Of a stretch of 64,000 nucleotides of DNA, positions 2,798 to 16,111 are shown piece by piece (the first letter of the stretch is position 1; every line of letters starts with the position of its first letter). Origin of the DNA: an uncultured Alphaproteobacteria bacterium. Its GTDB lineage: Bacteria > Pseudomonadota > Alphaproteobacteria > CAAHEQ01 > UBA3637. The stretch is from the NCBI GenBank assembly GCA_944392785.1, contig CALXXW010000013.1, positions 182,201 to 246,200 of the forward strand, read 5' to 3'. Both the position numbers and the translations under genes were made by a program. Under the pieces are notes generated by a model. It was not told the DNA's origin and made no database searches. It worked only from the letters and a program-made list of their open reading frames with translations.

Positions 2798-2803
2798 ATC
2801 ATT

Positions 2804-2877
2804 GGTGGGTGCGACAGGGATTGAACCTGTGACCCCTACCGTGTGAAGGTAATGCTCTCCCGCTGAGCTACGCACCC
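2804..2877 (-). tRNA. tRNA-Val (anticodon CAC)
   Basis: Cloverleaf on the minus strand with acceptor GGGTGCG/CGCACCC, D-loop TAGCTCAGCGGGAGAGC and T-loop GGTTCAATCC. Anticodon loop is TTCACAC and the 3' CCA is encoded. Confidence 0.85.
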
Positions 2878-2952
2878 CAAGTTCAATGGAAGAGTTTATA
2901 CACCGAACTCAAAAAGATGTCAAGAAAAAAAGCAATATTTTTTGACTTTTTC

Positions 2953-3897
2953 TTATGACTCTCTTTGTCTGTTTATCTGATACGCCGTAAAAAACAGGGA
3001 AAGACTACCATGCCCATAACTGGGAATAATCCGAAAATCGGCTTTTGGAAGAACCTTGGCCAATTCATACGCTTGTGATACAGGACAACACATATCCAAT
3101 CTGTTATGTAAAATAACCGTTGGAATATGCCGTATTTTATCAGCGTTTTGCAACAACTGATTGTCTTTTAAGAAATACTGATTTCGATCATAATGCAGGA
3201 AAATACGATGAGATAATACCGCTTGAGGCGTCACCTCCACCGGCGAGAAAGTCACCTCTTTGGAACCAATCGCATATTCCAAGCCACGATAATAACGCAA
3301 AGCTTTTTCTTGATCTTTTACATCCTTTGAAAAAATCAAATTATAGAAATAAGCCGCCGGCGTTTGTGGCGCCGCCATTTTTTCCAATTGCTCCCAATAG
3401 TCGGCATAAAATAAAGGAACAACCGGCGATAAACAGGCACTGTCTTGAGAACGCCCCAAAAAGATACTATTAACGAAAATTCGCTCTACCCTATCCGGAT
3501 ACGTCTCGGCAAACAATAAGGCCAATGTCGCTCCGAAAGAGCCGCCCGACACAGTGATTTTTTCCTGAATACCTAAATAATCTAACAGATGTAAAGCATC
3601 CTGTAAGGTATCTTGAGATGTGTTTTTATAAAATGGATCTTCTGCTGTTGATTGACCACATCCTCTTTGATCGAACAGTAGGACGCGATGCGTCTTTAAA
3701 TTAAAAATAGAGGCATTTTTCGCTTTGGCACCCCCTCCGGGACCACCGTGAAAAAAAAGAACGGGACGACCATCCGGATTGCCTATATCCATATAGTGAA
3801 TCTGATGACCATCGACACATGGTAAAAACCCTTCGGCCCGTGGTTTAAGATATGTTTGACGCAACTTAAATAAAAAAATCTGAAAACGTCTTATCAT
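2953..3897 (-). CDS. pip: proline iminopeptidase (alpha/beta hydrolase, S33)
   Basis: HGGPGGG oxyanion motif, GGSFGATLAL nucleophile elbow and a length typical of Pip. The start is chosen at the ATG preceded by AAAGGA; the track ORF extends to 3960. Confidence 0.8.
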   Translation of the reverse strand: MIRRFQIFLFKLRQTYLKPRAEGFLPCVDGHQIHYMDIGNPDGRPVLFFHGGPGGGAKAKNASIFNLKTHRVLLFDQRGCGQSTAEDPFYKNTSQDTLQDALHLLDYLGIQEKITVSGGSFGATLALLFAETYPDRVERIFVNSIFLGRSQDSACLSPVVPLFYADYWEQLEKMAAPQTPAAYFYNLIFSKDVKDQEKALRYYRGLEYAIGSKEVTFSPVEVTPQAVLSHRIFLHYDRNQYFLKDNQLLQNADKIRHIPTVILHNRLDMCCPVSQAYELAKVLPKADFRIIPSYGHGSLSLFFTAYQINRQRES

Positions 3898-4043
3898 GAT
3901 TCCTTTCCCCTTTTCTGGTCTTGGAAGGGCGATAACAATAACAGAGGAAAAACGCAACATACGCTCCCACCAAGCTTATACACCCATGTCCAACAACCCT
4001 ATGATATATTTTTTTAAGTCGAATGTCAAGCCCCAAAACATTT

Positions 4044-5231
4044 TTACCCTTTGCTTCGTTTATTTTGAACAGACGCCACCCATACCGGAGACAATGTCTT
4101 GCGGTCTGAATTGTTAGCCTCACTTAGACCACGCTTAGATTTTACCATCTTATCATGTTGAATGATTGTCGCTAATAATGGTTTTTTTTTAGACTCTTTC
4201 ACTAACGTTGCCATCAATTCTTTATTTTGAGAAAAAGCAATCAGAAGCTGATTTTTCAAGGATTCTTTTCCCTCGGCGACGACTTTATCCCCTTCGCTTG
4301 TCCATGTGTAAACGGCACGGCTATCATTTTGCTGGTGTCTGAGCATATCAATCATGGCAAATATCTCCGCTATCGTTTCTATTGACCCATATGGAGAAAA
4401 AGGATCTTGGATAAGATATTGTTCCAAAACAGGCTCAACTATGGCATGCGTATCATGCTCCATATAACCAACCTTTTTGTAGTTCTTCTGCTGTGCTTTT
4501 TGGGAAAAACCAATGCCGGAAAATGTAAAAATATCCTTTAGCCCATCCATAACAAAATGACTGGTTTCACCCACGAAATTATTTTTATTTCGAAAGGCGT
4601 GCGAAACTTCGGGGACAAAATCAGAAACATCATTAATGTATATATGTCCTCGACCGCCGGGAGAATAATTAGAGCGCCGGTGATTTAACAAGCTGGCTGT
4701 CCAAGAGTTGTCATCTTTCGTGTATGAGATTCTCGGGTTGCCCGAAGCATCCAATATGTCGTAAATCCGTCCCTGTATATCTTCTTTTTCTCCACTCGCC
4801 AACGGATTAGTGGATAAATACTCTGCGGCATCTGCTATGATTTTTTGCTCATACTCTGTATAGGGATTATCTTTGGGTAATTGCGTATCCTTGGATTTGG
4901 CGGAAATTTTTTCTTGAGCCGCCATAACATCGCCATAGTTAAAATTCCTTTTACCGTCTTGCGTGATTAAACCTAATGTTTTCATAACGTACAACATATC
5001 GGGATGAACTCGAGTTTTTTGTTTTTGAAGCACCGTATAGGCTTGGAAAAAGCTTGGCTCCTCATGGGTATCCCTTTCAACCTGTGTCGCAACCGAGGCG
5101 TCCGATTCTGTTTCTGTAGCCGTTTCCGCACGAGCCTCTGTTCCAGCCAATCCCGCTGTCAGACCGGCTGTCAAAGCTGCCGCCTGAACCGTCTTTTGAA
5201 CCGATTTTTTTAATTTATCTTGTAATCCCAT
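4044..5231 (-). CDS. hypothetical secreted protein (cysteine-free, about 395 aa)
   Basis: The ATG at 5231 is preceded by GGAG. An N-terminal Sec-type signal (AALTAGLTAGLAGTEARA|E) is present. No recognisable domain and no Cys residues. Confidence 0.55.
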   Translation of the reverse strand: MGLQDKLKKSVQKTVQAAALTAGLTAGLAGTEARAETATETESDASVATQVERDTHEEPSFFQAYTVLQKQKTRVHPDMLYVMKTLGLITQDGKRNFNYGDVMAAQEKISAKSKDTQLPKDNPYTEYEQKIIADAAEYLSTNPLASGEKEDIQGRIYDILDASGNPRISYTKDDNSWTASLLNHRRSNYSPGGRGHIYINDVSDFVPEVSHAFRNKNNFVGETSHFVMDGLKDIFTFSGIGFSQKAQQKNYKKVGYMEHDTHAIVEPVLEQYLIQDPFSPYGSIETIAEIFAMIDMLRHQQNDSRAVYTWTSEGDKVVAEGKESLKNQLLIAFSQNKELMATLVKESKKKPLLATIIQHDKMVKSKRGLSEANNSDRKTLSPVWVASVQNKRSKG

Positions 5232-5435
5232 AACATTCTCCAATATCTTTCAAAGAAGGGTAAAATCTACTTTGCATAGTATAGCTATCTTTTTCTAATT
5301 CGTCAAATGGCAATACCAACCATCAAACACAAGACGGAAATCCTACACGAGATGGTGTTATAGGATATTGACCCGAGCACCAAAATGATATATCATGCTG
5401 AAGTGTAGGCATCACACGTCATTAAGGAGTAAAAA

Positions 5436-6287
5436 ATGCAACAACAGAATTGGCATGATATTATTTCGCAATTTGCCTCGGGACAGCAAAGAGTTTTAAG
5501 CGTTTTTAGGGAACTGGTCAAGACCTATCCTACAAGTAAAAGGCAGGAAGCTCTGCAATTAATGGAAGAAACAGCGGATGAAATGGAGCATCATGGATAT
5601 CACTCTTACCCTTATCACAATGATTTGAAGGAGGGATTAAGGAAACTGTTTGGACTATCTTCGCATACAGCGGAGGCTTTGATGATGAGCTATCAACTGG
5701 CAACACCAGCCACTCGCACAAAATTGAAAAAAGAGATGGAAAAAGGGTCTGATACACGGGCCTTTTCACCCTCTTTTTTGCGTCATACACCATCCATTAT
5801 ACATCGTGCCATTCTGAGAAACAAATTAAATCAATATGCAAATAAAATTCCTTCTTTGGGCAAACAAATTTTACGGATACAAACGCCTCCCGGAAGAGAA
5901 CTGACTTATCAGGATATAAATAGTCATCATCCTTTATGTGCGACATTTTTTCGTCTGGCACAGCTATCCTCGGACAAAAGACAACAAGTCATTCAACTTA
6001 TTCTTAACAGTCAACAGCTTACTCACCTATCGGATATTGACCGAGGTGTCTCCTATTTAGCGTTAAAATTATTACCATTCTTAACATCTGCTCAGCAGCC
6101 GACAAAACATTTACCGCAACAAAATGAACAAGCAGAAAACATAAAACAAACCTATAATACCGTGAAGGTTTTCGGATGGTGTTTGTTGACTCAAAATCCC
6201 TATGATCAAGATAGATGGATTAAATTAATGGAAATGAAGCCTCAAAACCAATTTATCGCGCGAGATTATGACTTTCAACATTGCTAG
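5436..6287 (+). CDS. hypothetical cytoplasmic protein
   Basis: 283-aa ORF divergent from the previous gene, followed by a terminator. No recognisable domain. Confidence 0.5.
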   Translation: MQQQNWHDIISQFASGQQRVLSVFRELVKTYPTSKRQEALQLMEETADEMEHHGYHSYPYHNDLKEGLRKLFGLSSHTAEALMMSYQLATPATRTKLKKEMEKGSDTRAFSPSFLRHTPSIIHRAILRNKLNQYANKIPSLGKQILRIQTPPGRELTYQDINSHHPLCATFFRLAQLSSDKRQQVIQLILNSQQLTHLSDIDRGVSYLALKLLPFLTSAQQPTKHLPQQNEQAENIKQTYNTVKVFGWCLLTQNPYDQDRWIKLMEMKPQNQFIARDYDFQHC

Positions 6288-6313
6288 AGCGATTAGCACC
6301 ATCCATGAAACGA

Positions 6314-6345
6314 AAAAGACAGGGGCGTTTCCTGTCTTTTTTTGA
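6314..6345 (+). terminator. rho-independent terminator
   Basis: Hairpin AGACAGG...CCTGTCT followed by a T7 run. Confidence 0.65.
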
Positions 6346-6412: not shown

Positions 6413-9016
6413 ATGTCAAAATATAAAGAAACAAAAGCGCTAGATGATAAATTTGACGCGGCTGCCATAGAAAAACGCAGCATGCAATTTTGGGAAGAAA
6501 CCGGCATTTATCAGTATGATAAAACAGCTCCTCGTGACAAAACATTTATTGTTGATACCCCTCCTCCGACCGTTTCTGGTTCATTGCATATCGGACATAT
6601 TTTTTCCTATACACAAGCCGATGTTATGGTTCGTTATCATCGCATGATGGGAAAATCTATTTTCTATCCCATCGGTTGGGATGATAACGGTTTACCGACC
6701 GAACGACGCGTTCAAAATTATTTCAATATTGCTTGCAATCCGGAAATTCCCTATGATCCGGCCTTTCGCCCCAAACATGACCCCAAATCCGATGCTCGGC
6801 GTCAAGATGTCTCGCGCCGAAATTTTATCGAAGCCTGTAATGAATTGGTGAAAATGGATGAGGCGGCTTTTGAAGATATTTTCCATCGGATCGGACATTC
6901 CTATGATTGGTCCTTGAAATATGCGACCATTGACGACATTTCCATTAAAGAGGCTCAGAAGTCTTTCCTGGATTTAGTAAAAAAAGGCATGGCTCGTTCC
7001 GTTGAGGCTCCTACCATGTGGGATATCACGTTTCAATCGGCTATTGCGCAAGCGGAAATAGAAGATCGTGAAACGGCTGGTTTCTTCCACGATATTCAAT
7101 TCACCGTCGAAGGAGACACTACCACTTTCACCATTGCCACAACTCGTCCCGAATTTCTGCCGGCATGTATCGCCGTCGTGGCACATCCGGATGATGAGCG
7201 CTATAAACCCTTCTTTGGTAAAAAAGCCATTGTTCCTATTTTTGATATTCCTGTTCCCATCGTCCCCTCCGAACATGCTGAGCCCGACAAAGGAACGGGA
7301 ATCATGATGGTTTGCACCTTCGGAGATGCGGCAGACGTTGCCTGGTGGAAACAATCCGGATTACCCATCAAACAAATTATTGGCTTAGACGGTCGCATTA
7401 TCAATCAGGAATATGGTCAAGGTAATTTCGTTTCCTTGAATCCGGAAAAAGCAAAAAACTATTATAATCAACTGATCGGTTTAAAGGTCAAAGATGCCCG
7501 TTCAAAAGTCGTTGAATTTTTACGTACTGAGAACAAGTTATTGGGAGAACCTAAACCATTAATGCATCCGGTAAAATTCTATGAAAAAGGATCTATTCCG
7601 CTTGAGTTTGTTTCATCACGTCAATGGTTCGTCTCCTTACTGGCTTATAAACAACAGCTATTGGAGATGGGACGAAAAATCAAGTGGACACCGGCTCATA
7701 TGCAAGCTCGCTATGAAGCATGGGTAGAGGGATTAAATCAAGATTGGTGCATTTCTCGCCAACGCTTTTTTGGTGTTCCCTTCCCGGTCTGGTATCCCAT
7801 TAACGACAAAGGTGTTATTAACTATGATGCTCCTATTTATGCCACACCAGATCAATTACCGGTCGACCCCATGACAGCTGTGCCGACCGGTTATACAGAA
7901 GCACAACGTGGTCAACCTAACGGTTTTATCGGGGATAAAGATATCATGGATACGTGGGCGACCAGTTCGTTAACTCCGCAGATTGCCATGGCTCATGCGC
8001 CGCAGGGACATCATTTGTCATTACCTTTTGATATGCGTCCACAGGCTCATGACATTATTCGCACATGGGCATTTTACACCATCATGAAGGCTTTTGCTCA
8101 TGAAGGAACTCTTCCTTGGAAAGAAGCTTTAATCAGCGGATTCATCCTGGATCCGGATCGCAAAAAAATGTCAAAATCTAAAGGCAATGTCATCACACCG
8201 ATAGATTTATTGGATAAACATTCCGCCGATGCTGTCCGTTATTGGGCTGCCCGCGCAAAAATGGGCATCGATACGGCCTTTGAAGAACAAATCATGGAAC
8301 AGGGTCGAAAGCTCTGTATGAAAATTTTCAATGCCAGTAAATTTGTCTTTATGATGGTTAAAAACGCGGGCTTATCCATGAATCAGAACTATCGTTTTGG
8401 CATCACGGATGACTTTGACAGAGCATGGGTCGCCCGTCTGGCTAATGTGGTCGAAGTGGCCAATAAAGCCTTTATGTTAAATGATTATGCTTTTGCCCTT
8501 GAGATGACGGAAAAATGTTTCTGGGACTTTTGTGATAACTATTTGGAAATTGTCAAAGGACGTGCCTATAGCCAAACACCGGCTTCAGCTGTCTCAACTT
8601 TAATGTTGACGATTGATACACTGATACGTTTGTTCGCACCTTTCTTAGCCTTTACGACCGAAGAGGTTTGGCAATCTCGCCCCTGGAGTCAGACAGAAAC
8701 TTCTGTCCATATTACCTCCTTCCCACAGGTTTCAGAGTTTGAAGGCTTGACCGGAGATATCCGTATTTATGAAAAAACACAGGAAGTAATCAACCTTATT
8801 CGAAAAGAGAAAGCCGAGCAAAAACGCTCCCTTAAAACACCTATCTTAGCCTTAACAATTCAGGCTGATGCTCCAACGATCTCTTTGTTGCACCCGGCCG
8901 TTCAGGATATTATCAATGCTTCAAATATCAAAGAAAATGCCTTTCGTTTTATCGAAGGGAACTCATTAAAACTGGATACTTGTATGCTTGGGGAAGATGA
9001 AAAAAAAGTCAAATAA
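6413..9016 (+). CDS. valS: valine--tRNA ligase (short type, no C-terminal coiled coil)
   Basis: PPPTVSGSLHIGH (HIGH region), ATTRPE...RYK...GK...IPIV..EHA..KGTG (a ValRS-specific block) and KMSKSKGN. The ATG at 6413 has an AAAAGGA RBS; the track ORF begins at TTG 6395. Confidence 0.85.
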   Translation: MSKYKETKALDDKFDAAAIEKRSMQFWEETGIYQYDKTAPRDKTFIVDTPPPTVSGSLHIGHIFSYTQADVMVRYHRMMGKSIFYPIGWDDNGLPTERRVQNYFNIACNPEIPYDPAFRPKHDPKSDARRQDVSRRNFIEACNELVKMDEAAFEDIFHRIGHSYDWSLKYATIDDISIKEAQKSFLDLVKKGMARSVEAPTMWDITFQSAIAQAEIEDRETAGFFHDIQFTVEGDTTTFTIATTRPEFLPACIAVVAHPDDERYKPFFGKKAIVPIFDIPVPIVPSEHAEPDKGTGIMMVCTFGDAADVAWWKQSGLPIKQIIGLDGRIINQEYGQGNFVSLNPEKAKNYYNQLIGLKVKDARSKVVEFLRTENKLLGEPKPLMHPVKFYEKGSIPLEFVSSRQWFVSLLAYKQQLLEMGRKIKWTPAHMQARYEAWVEGLNQDWCISRQRFFGVPFPVWYPINDKGVINYDAPIYATPDQLPVDPMTAVPTGYTEAQRGQPNGFIGDKDIMDTWATSSLTPQIAMAHAPQGHHLSLPFDMRPQAHDIIRTWAFYTIMKAFAHEGTLPWKEALISGFILDPDRKKMSKSKGNVITPIDLLDKHSADAVRYWAARAKMGIDTAFEEQIMEQGRKLCMKIFNASKFVFMMVKNAGLSMNQNYRFGITDDFDRAWVARLANVVEVANKAFMLNDYAFALEMTEKCFWDFCDNYLEIVKGRAYSQTPASAVSTLMLTIDTLIRLFAPFLAFTTEEVWQSRPWSQTETSVHITSFPQVSEFEGLTGDIRIYEKTQEVINLIRKEKAEQKRSLKTPILALTIQADAPTISLLHPAVQDIINASNIKENAFRFIEGNSLKLDTCMLGEDEKKVK

Positions 9017-12695: not shown

Positions 12696-14090
12696 ATGCT
12701 CTATTGGGGATTATTTTTATCTTTTGCCATATCTGTTCTGATTTATGCGTTTTATCCGTTCGGAGATAAGTTAAATGTCGAACGCCATCAAGCCGAAGCT
12801 TTAATCACAGCTTTTATCAATCAACACCAGGCCGCCAAAAATTATCTGGTACATGCGTTGCGGCTGCCGCCTCTCAACAACACCGGCATTGATGAAGGCT
12901 CCGAAGGTGTTGCCCTCTTTCCTCAAGAGCTGGATGATTTTATTCCGCCTTACATGGAAAGTGATCTATATCAGATTCAGGATAATAACGGAGAATTAAG
13001 AACGGCGTTGAATCCCGATCCGCAGAACAGCAACTATGTCGGAGGGGCTTTTTCCTCGGCTTTGATTTGTGTGAAACGCGATGACAGTAGCTTATCGCTC
13101 ATTCCGGATTACCACCTGACAAGTTGCCTAGACGGCTTGGCAGATCACCAATATATCATTACATACGGAGCTCGCCCCGAATGGTGGGACAATCAGACAT
13201 CCATCGAAATGAAAGGAACTTGGCGACATGCTGTTGCACGTATGACACATAATGCACCTAATTGCGGCACATTATTACATGATCCTAAAAACGGACAAAA
13301 AAACGGAGAACCCGTTTATTCTTTGGATAACGGGTATCGTATTTCGGTTGATATTGTCAACCCTCTGGTCACCCAAACACTTAAAAAAGCCGGTGTAAGC
13401 GGTGATTACATACATGACGATCTGATTGATTTATTCTTTTGCATTTCAGCCTATGGCGATCTTTATGTCCCGGGCGCTCTGTATCACTATGATGCAAACA
13501 GTAATACCCGAGAAGGATACAGTGAAACAGCCTCCCGTTGGACAAACTTGGGAACTGTTGGCGGAACATTATCGGCCCGTGTCGATAAACAGGGTTTACA
13601 ACCGACCTCCCGCCTAGATACGGGAATAACACTTAACCCCTATACAAACTATACCTTGACTCTGGTCATGCGCACAACGGATACACAAAACAACAAAACA
13701 TTAACCAGTGGTTTTCCAATCTTAACGACCGACAATCAGACGGATTTATACATTGCCGGACAGACAATTAACATGACCACGGCATCCTCTCGCCGAAACG
13801 ATATGGTGTCCATAACCTATGTCAATGACATAACAACGGGAGAAGGACGTCTCTATGTCAACGGGGAACCGGTTAAAACATTGACGGGAACAGAGCGAAC
13901 GGCTATCAGCGGGACTCTGTTCTTAGAGGCAACGAACACGCGCTTCTTCAACATCAAGTATTATGACACCGTTTTAGAAGAAGACTTTGTCTGGCAGAAT
14001 TATAAATGGGACAAACGCCGCTACAACATTCGCTTTAAAAATAAACGTAAAGTGGAGTATATTCACCGCAATCCCAATGACAAAGCTTAA
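12696..14090 (+). CDS. hypothetical membrane-anchored protein with C-terminal concanavalin-A/LamG-like lectin domain
   Basis: 464 aa. A 22-aa N-terminal hydrophobic segment is followed by an amphipathic, pilin-like helix. The C-terminal beta-rich region carries RLYVNGEPV and GTLFLEA motifs typical of LamG jelly-rolls. Confidence 0.6.
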   Translation: MLYWGLFLSFAISVLIYAFYPFGDKLNVERHQAEALITAFINQHQAAKNYLVHALRLPPLNNTGIDEGSEGVALFPQELDDFIPPYMESDLYQIQDNNGELRTALNPDPQNSNYVGGAFSSALICVKRDDSSLSLIPDYHLTSCLDGLADHQYIITYGARPEWWDNQTSIEMKGTWRHAVARMTHNAPNCGTLLHDPKNGQKNGEPVYSLDNGYRISVDIVNPLVTQTLKKAGVSGDYIHDDLIDLFFCISAYGDLYVPGALYHYDANSNTREGYSETASRWTNLGTVGGTLSARVDKQGLQPTSRLDTGITLNPYTNYTLTLVMRTTDTQNNKTLTSGFPILTTDNQTDLYIAGQTINMTTASSRRNDMVSITYVNDITTGEGRLYVNGEPVKTLTGTERTAISGTLFLEATNTRFFNIKYYDTVLEEDFVWQNYKWDKRRYNIRFKNKRKVEYIHRNPNDKA

Positions 14091-14149: not shown

Positions 14150-16111
14150 ATGATAAGAGATACAAATGAGCGCGGAGCAATCATGCTAGAGGTTATTGCC
14201 GTCTTGGCTTTAATTGGCGCAATGGGAACCCTGCTTTTTCGTCAAGTGTTGATGCGCAATCAAGAAGTCGACAATGTTAATATGGCAACCGAAGCACGTA
14301 TCATGAAGGAAAGTACTTTGGCCTATATTCAGGCTGATCGCGCTCTTTTACTTCAAAATACGACCTTAAATCCTCCTGACGGAAACGGGGGTTGTATCGT
14401 TCCCAACCAAGATGACGTTGCCGCCTTTATCCCGGACGGATATGTTGAGCTCAATTCGAGCGATCAATTCGAAGGCATTATAGATTACTACAACATCACG
14501 CTCTGTTCGTATAAGCCAACAGATGAAACGGAACCCGTTATGTATGGAATCATCGTTCCCAAAGCAGAACTCTTACCCTCGGAAATGAACCTAAAACGCG
14601 CTTCACGCGTGGCTGCTCTGATCGGATCGGGTGGTGGTGTTTGGCCCAGTCAAAACGAAGAACTCAGCGGAACGATGGGAGGCTGGCATTTACCGCCGGA
14701 TGGTCTGACTTATCCCGGCACTCCGACGTTTGTCGCTATTACGGGAATGGATATTTTTGTACCGGAACCGGAAAATTTACAGCAGTTAACAACGCTTAAA
14801 TTACAGCTGGATGATGATGCCAAGTTCACAAATTTACATGCCTCTGATTTCTTGTCCGTGGGCGCGGCAACCAATAATTGTTTTCGCAATGTGGGGACCG
14901 TCGATAAGCCCGAGTATGAAATCTTGCGCCCGGGGCAACGCAACAGCGATACAGGAGATATTTGTGATCCTCTCTTTTGGGTGGGAACGGTCGGAGCAAA
15001 CACAACCGAAGACCACTCAATACACGGACATGTCTATGCGAAACAAAACATGTATATCGGGCGAAAAAATCAAGCCAATATCCACGCTATTGCCTTAGAA
15101 AATGAAACGGCTAAAGGCGGACGCATTACCGTTTTTGATGATACAGGACGACAACGTTTGGTTATTGATGGCTCCGGCCGTCTGTTGGGCGGTATAGCCG
15201 CTAACACATCCGATATAGAAGATGACAGAAATGCCACTTTGATTCTAAAGCCCGGTAATTTACAGGATAACCTCAGTAAAGAATCCGCCAGTTTGACATT
15301 GCGCAGTTCAGATGAACAGGATGATTTGGAAATCAAAGACGGTCGCATTGTTGTGGCTCGTCAAACGCCCGATAAACTGGCCGAAAGTGCCACAACATCC
15401 TATCAACTGGATCCGGCCCATACATCGGTTGTCAACGAAATTCGGTTGGCTGCTCGAGGCGGTGCTCGTCTGAGCGATTTATTACCCAATTACATTTCTA
15501 AAACTATGGAAGCCATCACATCCAGCGGAACGGGTGCGTATTCCGAGCACACTCAAGCCGTCCCGACCTGTCCGAAAGGATATACGGCAGCCCTTATGGT
15601 CACACCGACACGTTGGGACACATCTCGTTTATCCGAGATTGATATTTCACATCAACGACGTTTAAATATCGATAATTTCTTTGTCAATGCTCCCGCAGAC
15701 GGAGGAACGGCTTATTTAAAGCGGCAGTCTGATGATAATAATGACCTGATAGATGAAGAAATCATCATCAAAAAAGAAGATAAGCGAGCCGATGACACAA
15801 CGCCCAAAATCAAAATGGAAAAAGCGCGCCTGGCTATTATGATTGATGAGGAAGATCCTCAAAACACGGCCGCTTTGGATACACAAAAGACCGGCTCTTC
15901 TTGGACCATTCGAATGGGTTATGTTGATGATAACAACCAATGGAGCGGCTCGGTGCAAGACACCATATCCGCCGTTGTTCAAACTTTCTGTGTCTATGAT
16001 CCGACCGCACATGAAGGAAATGCCAATCGCATTCCTTGTCCGGAACGTAAGACCGGTAGCCTTTGTCCCGCCGGCTGTCATGAAGATAACGGCATTTGCT
16101 ATAAGGATTAA
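14150..16111 (+). CDS. large type IV pilin-like protein (prepilin-type N-terminal cleavage/methylation motif)
   Basis: 653 aa with an AAGGAGA RBS. The leader MIRDTNERG is followed by AIMLEVIAVLALIGAMGTLLF (G at -1, E at +5). The C-terminus has a Cys-rich disulfide region. Confidence 0.6.
   Translation: MIRDTNERGAIMLEVIAVLALIGAMGTLLFRQVLMRNQEVDNVNMATEARIMKESTLAYIQADRALLLQNTTLNPPDGNGGCIVPNQDDVAAFIPDGYVELNSSDQFEGIIDYYNITLCSYKPTDETEPVMYGIIVPKAELLPSEMNLKRASRVAALIGSGGGVWPSQNEELSGTMGGWHLPPDGLTYPGTPTFVAITGMDIFVPEPENLQQLTTLKLQLDDDAKFTNLHASDFLSVGAATNNCFRNVGTVDKPEYEILRPGQRNSDTGDICDPLFWVGTVGANTTEDHSIHGHVYAKQNMYIGRKNQANIHAIALENETAKGGRITVFDDTGRQRLVIDGSGRLLGGIAANTSDIEDDRNATLILKPGNLQDNLSKESASLTLRSSDEQDDLEIKDGRIVVARQTPDKLAESATTSYQLDPAHTSVVNEIRLAARGGARLSDLLPNYISKTMEAITSSGTGAYSEHTQAVPTCPKGYTAALMVTPTRWDTSRLSEIDISHQRRLNIDNFFVNAPADGGTAYLKRQSDDNNDLIDEEIIIKKEDKRADDTTPKIKMEKARLAIMIDEEDPQNTAALDTQKTGSSWTIRMGYVDDNNQWSGSVQDTISAVVQTFCVYDPTAHEGNANRIPCPERKTGSLCPAGCHEDNGICYKD

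Follow-up and report, generated by a model that had tools for sequence, protein, structure and literature searches.

A divergent gene pair beside valS in an uncultured Alphaproteobacteria bacterium: a candidate envelope hydrolase core shared with proteins of crAss-like phages

What do two adjacent genes of no recognisable family encode, and do they belong together, when they stand back to back between a pip-like gene and valS? The question is raised by a stretch of 64,000 nucleotides from an uncultured Alphaproteobacteria bacterium (assembly GCA_944392785.1, contig CALXXW010000013.1, positions 182,201 to 246,200), hereafter the window, for which an earlier note, made from the sequence alone, had described a divergent pair resembling one of effector/modulator or enzyme/chaperone type in an accessory islet. 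Gene A (4044..5231, minus strand) encodes a predicted exported protein of 395 amino acids (aa) from an uncharacterised family, and gene B (5436..6287, plus strand) a predicted cytoplasmic, basic, Gln/His-rich protein of 283 aa confined to this lineage. We propose, at a rough probability of 0.4, that A is a Sec-exported, probably metal-dependent hydrolase of the envelope or peptidoglycan. Its folded domain would be the founding type of an uncharacterised hydrolase-like family, and the core of that domain recurs in very large phage proteins, fused there to wall-degrading modules.

Gene A and its signal-peptide-like N-terminus

Mechanical calling of open reading frames (ORFs) starts A at a TTG (4044..5243, minus strand, 399 aa). 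All 11 of its homologues (11/11) begin at a Met that matches the ATG at 5231, and a GGAG Shine-Dalgarno (SD) motif stands at 5238-5241, 6 nt 5′ of that codon; on the strength of the alignment and the SD motif, the start was set at ATG 5231 (codon 5229-5231, stop 4044-4046), which yields 395 aa and not a single Cys. On the length of A and its lack of Cys, as on the position, length and composition of B, the earlier note was right. Both ORFs are conserved in several genomes and the ratio of nonsynonymous to synonymous substitution rates (dN/dS) is well below 1: A stands at about 0.11-0.15 and B at 0.18-0.24, dS being close to saturated; A and B are therefore real genes and not chance ORFs. A profile search found no paralogue of either elsewhere in the 64-kb window.

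Sequence reading and a hydrophobicity scan give the first 35 residues of A (5127..5231, minus strand) the layout of a signal peptide, MGLQDKLKKSVQKT / VQAAALTAGLTAGLAGT / EARA|E: a positively charged n-region, MGLQDKLKKSVQKT, with four Lys and one Asp; an h-region of 17 residues, VQAAALTAGLTAGLAGT, made of Ala, Leu, Gly and Thr; and an A-x-A site with small residues at -3 and -1, where cleavage is predicted after residue 35 (ARA|E). The sequence A-R/K-A followed by E is invariant in 12 orthologues, and the N-terminal positions invariant in all 12 are M1, L7, K8, Q12, K13, T14, A19, L20, G27, E32, A35 and E36. The Sec signal proposed in the earlier note has a charged n-region and an A-x-A site; its hydrophobic part is of only moderate strength (best 15-residue Kyte-Doolittle mean 1.38). 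Protein A is very probably exported, as far as its sequence can tell.

Among orthologues down to 43% overall identity, residues 1-35 are far better conserved than the adjoining mature region. That region opens with an acidic, Thr/Glu-rich linker (residues 36-65; 5037..5126, minus strand), which is poorly conserved and of variable length in the alignment and has a predicted local distance difference test (pLDDT) score below 50 in a full-length model. A match of residues 1-55 to PHROG 1320 (E 0.003) was dismissed as an effect of signal peptide and low complexity. At the other end, the C-terminus of A (4047-4100) and those of many family members (P0015-P0036) share a short conserved basic tail, of the form ..LSPxxVAxxQNKRSNG in orthologues of A and ..AAKTR, ..RKTGRSG or ..HHGGGGSR in other members.

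The core of A and its phage relatives

An exhaustive HMMER search of 1.84 billion representative proteins returned 35 representatives of the A family at E<=0.001; a separate count gives 11 close homologues. Most are 'hypothetical proteins' encoded on the chromosomes of Alphaproteobacteria metagenome-assembled genomes (MAGs) and bear N-terminal extensions of their own. Many have classical signal peptides, P0024 carries a lipobox (LVSGC), and P0033, P0038 and P0044 have a transmembrane anchor, in some cases preceding the domain, which supports an extracytoplasmic location for the family as a whole.

Alignments of 26, 32 and 37 sequences, the most distant being about 18-25% identical to A, leave only five invariant residues: E208, H211, Y251, E258 and H262. 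The first two belong to motif 1, E208-V-S-H211 (ExxH; 4599..4610, minus strand, codons GAA GTT TCG CAC), a candidate catalytic base and metal ligand. Tyr251 lies at 4479..4481 (minus strand) and the last two in motif 2, E258-H-D-T-H262-A-I-V-E266-P267 (ExxxHxxxEP; 4431..4460, minus strand), with candidate metal ligands; P267 is nearly invariant, and most sequences have E, Q or a like residue at position 266. An AlphaFold2 model of the folded domain, residues 66-352 (4176..5036, minus strand), built from the 37-sequence alignment, reached a pLDDT of 85.5 and a predicted template modelling score (pTM) of 0.85. It places three short strands before the ExxH helix and, later in the chain, an ExxxHxxxE helix that carries E258, H262 and E266, 47 residues downstream of motif 1. 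The model had no convincing fold match in the PDB, with weak zincin-like matches only.

Distant family members encoded on viral contigs are of very large size, with the A core at the N-terminal end; hmmsearch and hmmalign against phage ORFs delimit the shared part to about residues 150-275 of A (4407..4784, minus strand). The core is joined to an SLT lytic transglycosylase in L015, to LysM and Amidase_2 in L013, and to LysM and a segment matching a PHROG annotated as an L-Ala-D-Glu peptidase in P0046 (here and below, loci carry the prefix L and proteins the prefix P). In P0032 it is joined to PG_binding_1 in two repeats; this 882-aa protein from a JGI metagenome is an internal duplication, with two copies of [A core + PG_binding_1] of about 400 aa each.

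Gene order adds a further element. In L011, P0046 comes after CrAss_Ring_2, CrAss_Ring_1, a 119-aa protein and a 1521-aa protein. In PhiCrAss001 the order is R1 (gp43), muzzle (gp44) and cargo protein C1 (gp45), and C1 has been proposed as the first protein ejected into the host envelope (PMC10172136). In L012-L015 and L018, too, a large protein homologous to the 1521-aa one is encoded upstream of the A-core gene. L011 (5439-14701) and these loci show one syntenic block, a protein of about 1500 aa (sometimes split, with a C-terminal piece of about 290 aa) followed by the A-core protein. The block corresponds to the muzzle-then-cargo order of PhiCrAss001, and in L011 it follows the CrAss ring genes. 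Judged by gene position alone, the phage members of the A family may be cargo or ejection proteins with wall-degrading modules. The 290-aa proteins upstream of the phage A-domain genes had been considered as ring proteins, a candidacy that was rejected; they show homology to the C-terminal part of the 1521-aa protein. Pfam scans of the phage neighbour proteins gave no match, and tblastn of A and of the phage-type core against 50,697 GenBank phage records returned none at BLAST sensitivity.

In the mechanism that we propose, A would be exported by Sec and cleaved at ARA|E into a periplasmic or envelope protein. A small beta-sheet would lead into the helix with E208-x-x-H211, and a second helix would bear E258-x-x-x-H262-x-x-x-E266; H211 and H262, together with E258 or E266, would hold a divalent metal, E208 would serve as general base and Y251 would stabilise the transition state, in an arrangement resembling that of zincins minus the first His of HExxH. 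Hydrolysis would be directed at a polymer of the envelope, with peptidoglycan peptides as the likeliest target. The envelope or peptidoglycan is the likely substrate because the same core is fused to LysM, SLT, Amidase_2 or PG_binding in phage virion proteins, and because it sits at the first-ejected cargo position in a crAss-like contig. In the bacterium, A would remodel the wall or act as a lytic enzyme, with a sigma-70 promoter of its own to drive its expression. A wider claim, that the core (ExxH...Y...ExxxHxxxEP) defines an undescribed family of metal-dependent cell-wall hydrolases with a zincin-like site devoid of HExxH, common to first-ejected virion proteins of crAss-like gut phages and to exported proteins of uncultured gut-type Alphaproteobacteria, is put forward tentatively, as a possibility about which we are doubtful.

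Several observations weigh against A being an exported hydrolase. The canonical HExxH is absent, its first His being replaced by Pro, Ala, Ile, Asp, Glu or Ser in all members. As the earlier note had anticipated, neither protein of the pair belongs to a recognisable family. Protein A has no Pfam, NCBIfam, PHROG or PDB sequence match even at permissive thresholds, nor a match in a PADLOC scan; B has no family, PDB or defence-system match in Pfam, NCBIfam, PHROGs or PADLOC, six members of its family having been scanned singly. The 37 members of the A family, also scanned singly at permissive E-values, share no recurring family, and the profiles of SLT, Amidase_2/3, M15, M23, NlpC/P60, LysM and PG_binding match neither A nor any of these 37 above threshold, such domains being present solely as distinct modules of the phage fusion proteins. 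Profile searches of the PDB with three alignments of A and one of B yielded nothing, or spurious hits to N-terminal helices of ACE (E about 0.3) that lie off the active site. The genes that surround the bacterial family members vary widely and give no guidance; Lnt, NfeD/Band_7 and RecJ are among them. As for export, the h-region is weakly hydrophobic, and conservation as strong as that of the signal segment is unusual for a plain Sec signal; it could mean an extra recognition role. Finally, the domain fusions show association with wall-degrading modules and not activity, and the core could instead serve in binding, in scaffolding or in ejection.

An exported A that is not a catalyst would carry a core that binds or scaffolds, for example on peptidoglycan or another envelope component: in phages it would position the lytic modules or aid the ejection channel, and in the bacterium it would have a structural envelope role. 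The want of any catalytic family or fold match fits such a module, and so does the presence, right beside the core in the phage proteins, of true lytic domains (SLT, Amidase_2). For the cargo proteins of PhiCrAss001, moreover, the role proposed is that of a channel across the envelope and not of enzymes (PMC10172136). What tells against it is the nature of the family-wide invariants, which are solely Glu, His, Tyr, Glu and His and form i/i+3 and i/i+4 pairs, set on two helices; a pattern of this sort is typical of metal or catalytic sites and not of binding surfaces. That lysins combining several different hydrolase modules are common tells against it as well. We consider a non-catalytic A unlikely, and A plausibly an enzyme.

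Should the A core prove to be a new hydrolase family, it would add an enzyme class to the toolbox that acts on peptidoglycan and the envelope, as a new crassvirus tool for envelope penetration and, in bacteria, as a new class of autolysin or antibacterial enzyme. For large ejected proteins of some uncultured crAss-like phages, whose passage across the host envelope has so far only been modelled, it would supply the N-terminal part with a function open to testing, and a set of 'hypothetical proteins' in a little-known clade of uncultured Alphaproteobacteria would gain an annotation. In the core that A has in common with crAss-like virion proteins lies a concrete starting point, open to experiment, towards what may be a new family of envelope hydrolases.

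The locus and gene B

The homologous loci come from MAGs of uncultured Alphaproteobacteria. The order valS(-) B(-) A(+) tRNA-Val(CAC)(+), which is that of the window mirrored, recurs in L001/L006 (A 74% identical), L007 (55%) and L005 (43%), and the succession valS-B-A-tRNA-Val is kept in L020 as well. In L003, L008 and L009 (A 48-49% identical) neither B nor valS is at the site, and a tRNA-Thr(GGT) gene lies about 160 bp upstream of A. All of these seven relatives (L001/L006, L007, L005, L003, L008 and L009) have tRNA-Val(CAC) on the strand of A and some 65 bp downstream of it, behind a spacer that holds a conserved TTGACA-17-TATAA promoter, and the association of A with tRNA-Val is conserved in 8/8 related loci examined.

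The window departs from this arrangement at one point. Between A and tRNA-Val(CAC) (2803..2877, minus strand) it has a pip-like alpha/beta hydrolase gene (2953..3960, minus strand), which scores 218 bits against TIGR01249, under the cutoff of 259.75, and also matches Abhydrolase_1. This insertion is specific to the window when set against seven related loci, none of which has pip downstream of A; the 98%-identical strain L020 has it too. Two copies of the tRNA-Val promoter flank pip: copy 1 (TTGACA-17-TATCAT; 4001..4029, minus strand) now stands upstream of pip, and copy 2 (TTGACA-17-TATAAA; 2895..2923, minus strand), directly upstream of tRNA-Val, aligns with the spacers of five relatives. 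Because the relatives lack pip and the promoter copies flank it, pip is the insertion and not A/B. By these comparisons it is a recent one, accompanied by a promoter duplication upstream of tRNA-Val.

The earlier note had the pair itself inserted between pip and valS, as an accessory islet. That reading fails because the order valS-B<->A-tRNA-Val(CAC), with valS at 6413..9016 (plus strand, start taken at ATG 6413, MSKYKE...), is conserved down to 43% identity of A. Of the adjacent ORFs, called or scanned, none was identified as an integrase or transposase gene; long repeats flanking A/B were not found, only short weak ones, the sole duplication being that of the tRNA-Val promoter around pip. 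The GC content of the locus is slightly lower than that of its neighbours (0.36-0.43 vs 0.43-0.50), and the other window ORFs scanned, a subset, are ordinary housekeeping genes. Both A and B are confined to a single clade of uncultured Alphaproteobacteria, and the housekeeping genes on either side evolve more slowly than they do. On this evidence the A/B locus is a conserved chromosomal neighbourhood and not an islet; the variable element is pip.

Three observations on the surroundings may be added. The genes valS and tRNA-Val(CAC) share one small neighbourhood in the window, L001, L005, L006 and L007, a closeness that may be due to chance or may point to a co-localisation of valine-decoding genes. 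In L001, L006 and L007 a conserved protein of 115-121 aa is encoded about 280-290 bp downstream of A, after tRNA-Val (L006 11472-11837), and is absent from the window; kinship of this protein with B was rejected (hhalign probability <=1%). Lastly, the window ORFs 12696-14090 (plus strand, 464 aa) and 14150-16111 (plus strand, 653 aa) have no Pfam match at E<=1e-5.

The divergent control region between A and B (5232..5435), studied by promoter scan and a four-genome comparison, measures 204 bp from ATG to ATG and 192 bp from the TTG of A, which bears out the shared region of some 190 bp in the earlier note. Two divergent sigma-70-like promoters came out of the scan, TTGACG-17-TATACT for A (5306..5278, minus strand) and TTGACC-17-TATCAT for B (5368..5396, plus strand), the latter followed by an SD sequence, AAGGAG, at 5424-5429 (plus strand). 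The hexamers of the A-side promoter (GTCAA and TATA blocks) and both SD sequences are conserved across the four genomes. Between B and valS lies an intrinsic terminator (6312..6342, plus strand), a 14-bp stem with 4 G-C pairs and then a T-run; it is present as the note had said, and to call it strong was somewhat generous, the fold of -17.2 kcal/mol having a z-score of only -1.5.

Protein B (33 kDa, net charge +8) contains 30 Gln, 13 His and 3 Cys. It has no signal peptide and no hydrophobic segment (best 19-aa window 0.87), in keeping with the cytoplasmic location first assigned to it. Among 5.8 billion proteins its only relatives are P0012-14 and P0048, plus a tandem paralogue in L005, all from the same clade; homologues were found in four lineages only, and a scan of JGI metagenomes for B gave no match. 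In L005 (6092-7854) the gene is duplicated in tandem, as 278 aa and 302 aa, each copy about 20% identical to the B of the window. With the valS of L005 at 78% identity, the evolution of B is very fast. As the evidence stands, B is a lineage-specific orphan gene.

Two parts of B stand out in the alignments. A His/acid-rich motif, ADEMEHHGYHSYPYHND (residues 47-63; 5574..5624, plus strand), holds the positions invariant in three orthologues, A47 D48 E49 M50 E51 H52 H53 G54 Y55 ... P59 Y60 H61 D63; the pattern ADEMEHHGY..PYH.D is mostly common to the L007 orthologue and is lost in the two L005 paralogues. The C-terminus of the window protein is a His-Cys end (..QHC; 6276..6284, plus strand), where orthologues have HCCCCE, HYCC, CCCCY and HPCYE. 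A second conserved segment reads GLS.HTAEAFMMSYQLATP. A eukaryote-type lipidation motif (CaaX or Rab-like CC) at this end was considered and rejected, the window protein having a single terminal Cys; there is likewise no sign of an intracellular lifestyle or of a translocation system.

Metal binding through the His/acid motif and the His/Cys tail may be a property of B, which would then be a cytoplasmic metallochaperone, metal buffer or redox sensor, tied to valS or to metal homeostasis rather than to A. In all genomes that have it, B is directly upstream of valS and on the same strand, and the valS product belongs to a zinc-dependent class I synthetase family. The link is loosened in the window by the terminator and a separate promoter-like site that come between the two genes; the two L005 paralogues do not both retain the His motif and the Cys tail, and B shows no homology to any metallochaperone family. 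We rate this role quite unlikely.

That A and B work as a pair, B being a chaperone or modulator of an enzyme or effector A, was suggested in the earlier note, and no positive evidence for it emerged; B might also be an immunity partner of A or a regulator of its transcription, with the two co-regulated from the shared divergent region. Four genomes preserve their divergent layout, at a distance of about 150-200 bp, with identity falling to 43% for A and to about 20% for B, both evolve faster than valS at the protein level, and the charge of B is like that of many DNA-binding proteins. Yet the adjacency may be plain synteny, given the constant place of B before valS, and in three lineages (L003, L008, L009) A has no detectable B, tRNA-Thr standing in its place. 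Presence and absence across relatives, a check that the note had suggested, show A-B synteny in several genomes and A without B in three lineages, which makes an obligate pair unlikely. No helix-turn-helix or regulator family was detected in B; lacking a signal peptide, B cannot protect the periplasm, and with its size and basic charge it is unlike secretion chaperones. Nor was a secretion-system gene recognised beside A/B in the loci inspected: no component of a type III, IV or VI secretion system was recognised among the genes called around A/B and the subset of window ORFs scanned, where a MacB/HlyD/OEP-type efflux set, some 20 kb distant, accounts for all transport genes identified. A functional pair is accordingly very doubtful; B would be a cytoplasmic, fast-evolving, lineage-restricted protein with valS as its only constant neighbour, and probably no obligate partner of A.

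Least of all do we credit, as highly improbable, that A is a domesticated or decaying lysin module from a virion and A with B a leftover cargo of a mobile element without current role, for although the core is shared with virion proteins of uncultured phages and the locus lies between genes for tRNA-Thr and tRNA-Val (tRNA genes being classical integration targets), no phage, integrase or transposase genes were identified among the adjacent ORFs and no long flanking repeats were found, A is under purifying selection (dN against L001 0.16, as low as the 0.17 of valS), at least 7 lineages conserve its promoter, SD sequence and signal peptide, the majority of family members are chromosomal with N-terminal extensions of their own, and the 50,697 phage records held 0 matches.

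Comparison with known systems

How, then, do A and B compare with systems already described? With effector-immunity or effector-chaperone islets they have in common that two unannotated, fast-evolving genes are adjacent and that one product is predicted to be exported and the other not. They differ in having no recognised linkage to a secretion system, no hallmarks of an island and a conserved synteny, and in that three lineages have kept the gene of the exported product without the adjacent one.

A second likeness is to ejected phage proteins such as T7 gp16, with its lytic transglycosylase domain, and C1 (gp45) of PhiCrAss001, since phage proteins of the A family are very large, are encoded in the virion block and carry SLT, Amidase_2, LysM or PG_binding. 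The likeness to gp45 is one of gene position only, the L011 gene coming after the ring and muzzle-position genes; sequence similarity is absent, going by the negative search of GenBank phage records, where cultured crassviruses are expected. The A of the window differs from such proteins in being a 395-aa chromosomal product with a predicted signal peptide and no phage neighbours.

A third comparison is with the peptidoglycan hydrolases (SLT/GH23, Amidase_2, Amidase_3, M15, M23, NlpC/P60). Their likeness to A consists in its predicted extracytoplasmic location and in the co-occurrence of its core with such modules in single phage polypeptides; A matches none of these families. The LAS/M15/M23 enzymes have H-x(n)-D...H-x-H or ExxH motifs, and A differs from them in having no conserved upstream His-Asp.

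The best guess for the working of A is that of a zincin-type metallohydrolase, akin as well to the lytic modules of ejected phage proteins. The zincins of gluzincin type include the M32 carboxypeptidases, the C-terminal effector domain of VgrG2b, ArdC/SprT-like domains and PPEP. In these the third metal ligand (Glu, His or Asp) lies on a downstream helix; in the model of A a downstream helix bears E258, H262 and E266, which are candidate ligands. A lacks their HExxH, the first His of which is missing from every family member, and it has no significant fold or profile similarity to any zincin family. Because A fits neither the zincins nor the known peptidoglycan hydrolases, it is best described as belonging to an uncharacterised family of exported hydrolase-like proteins.

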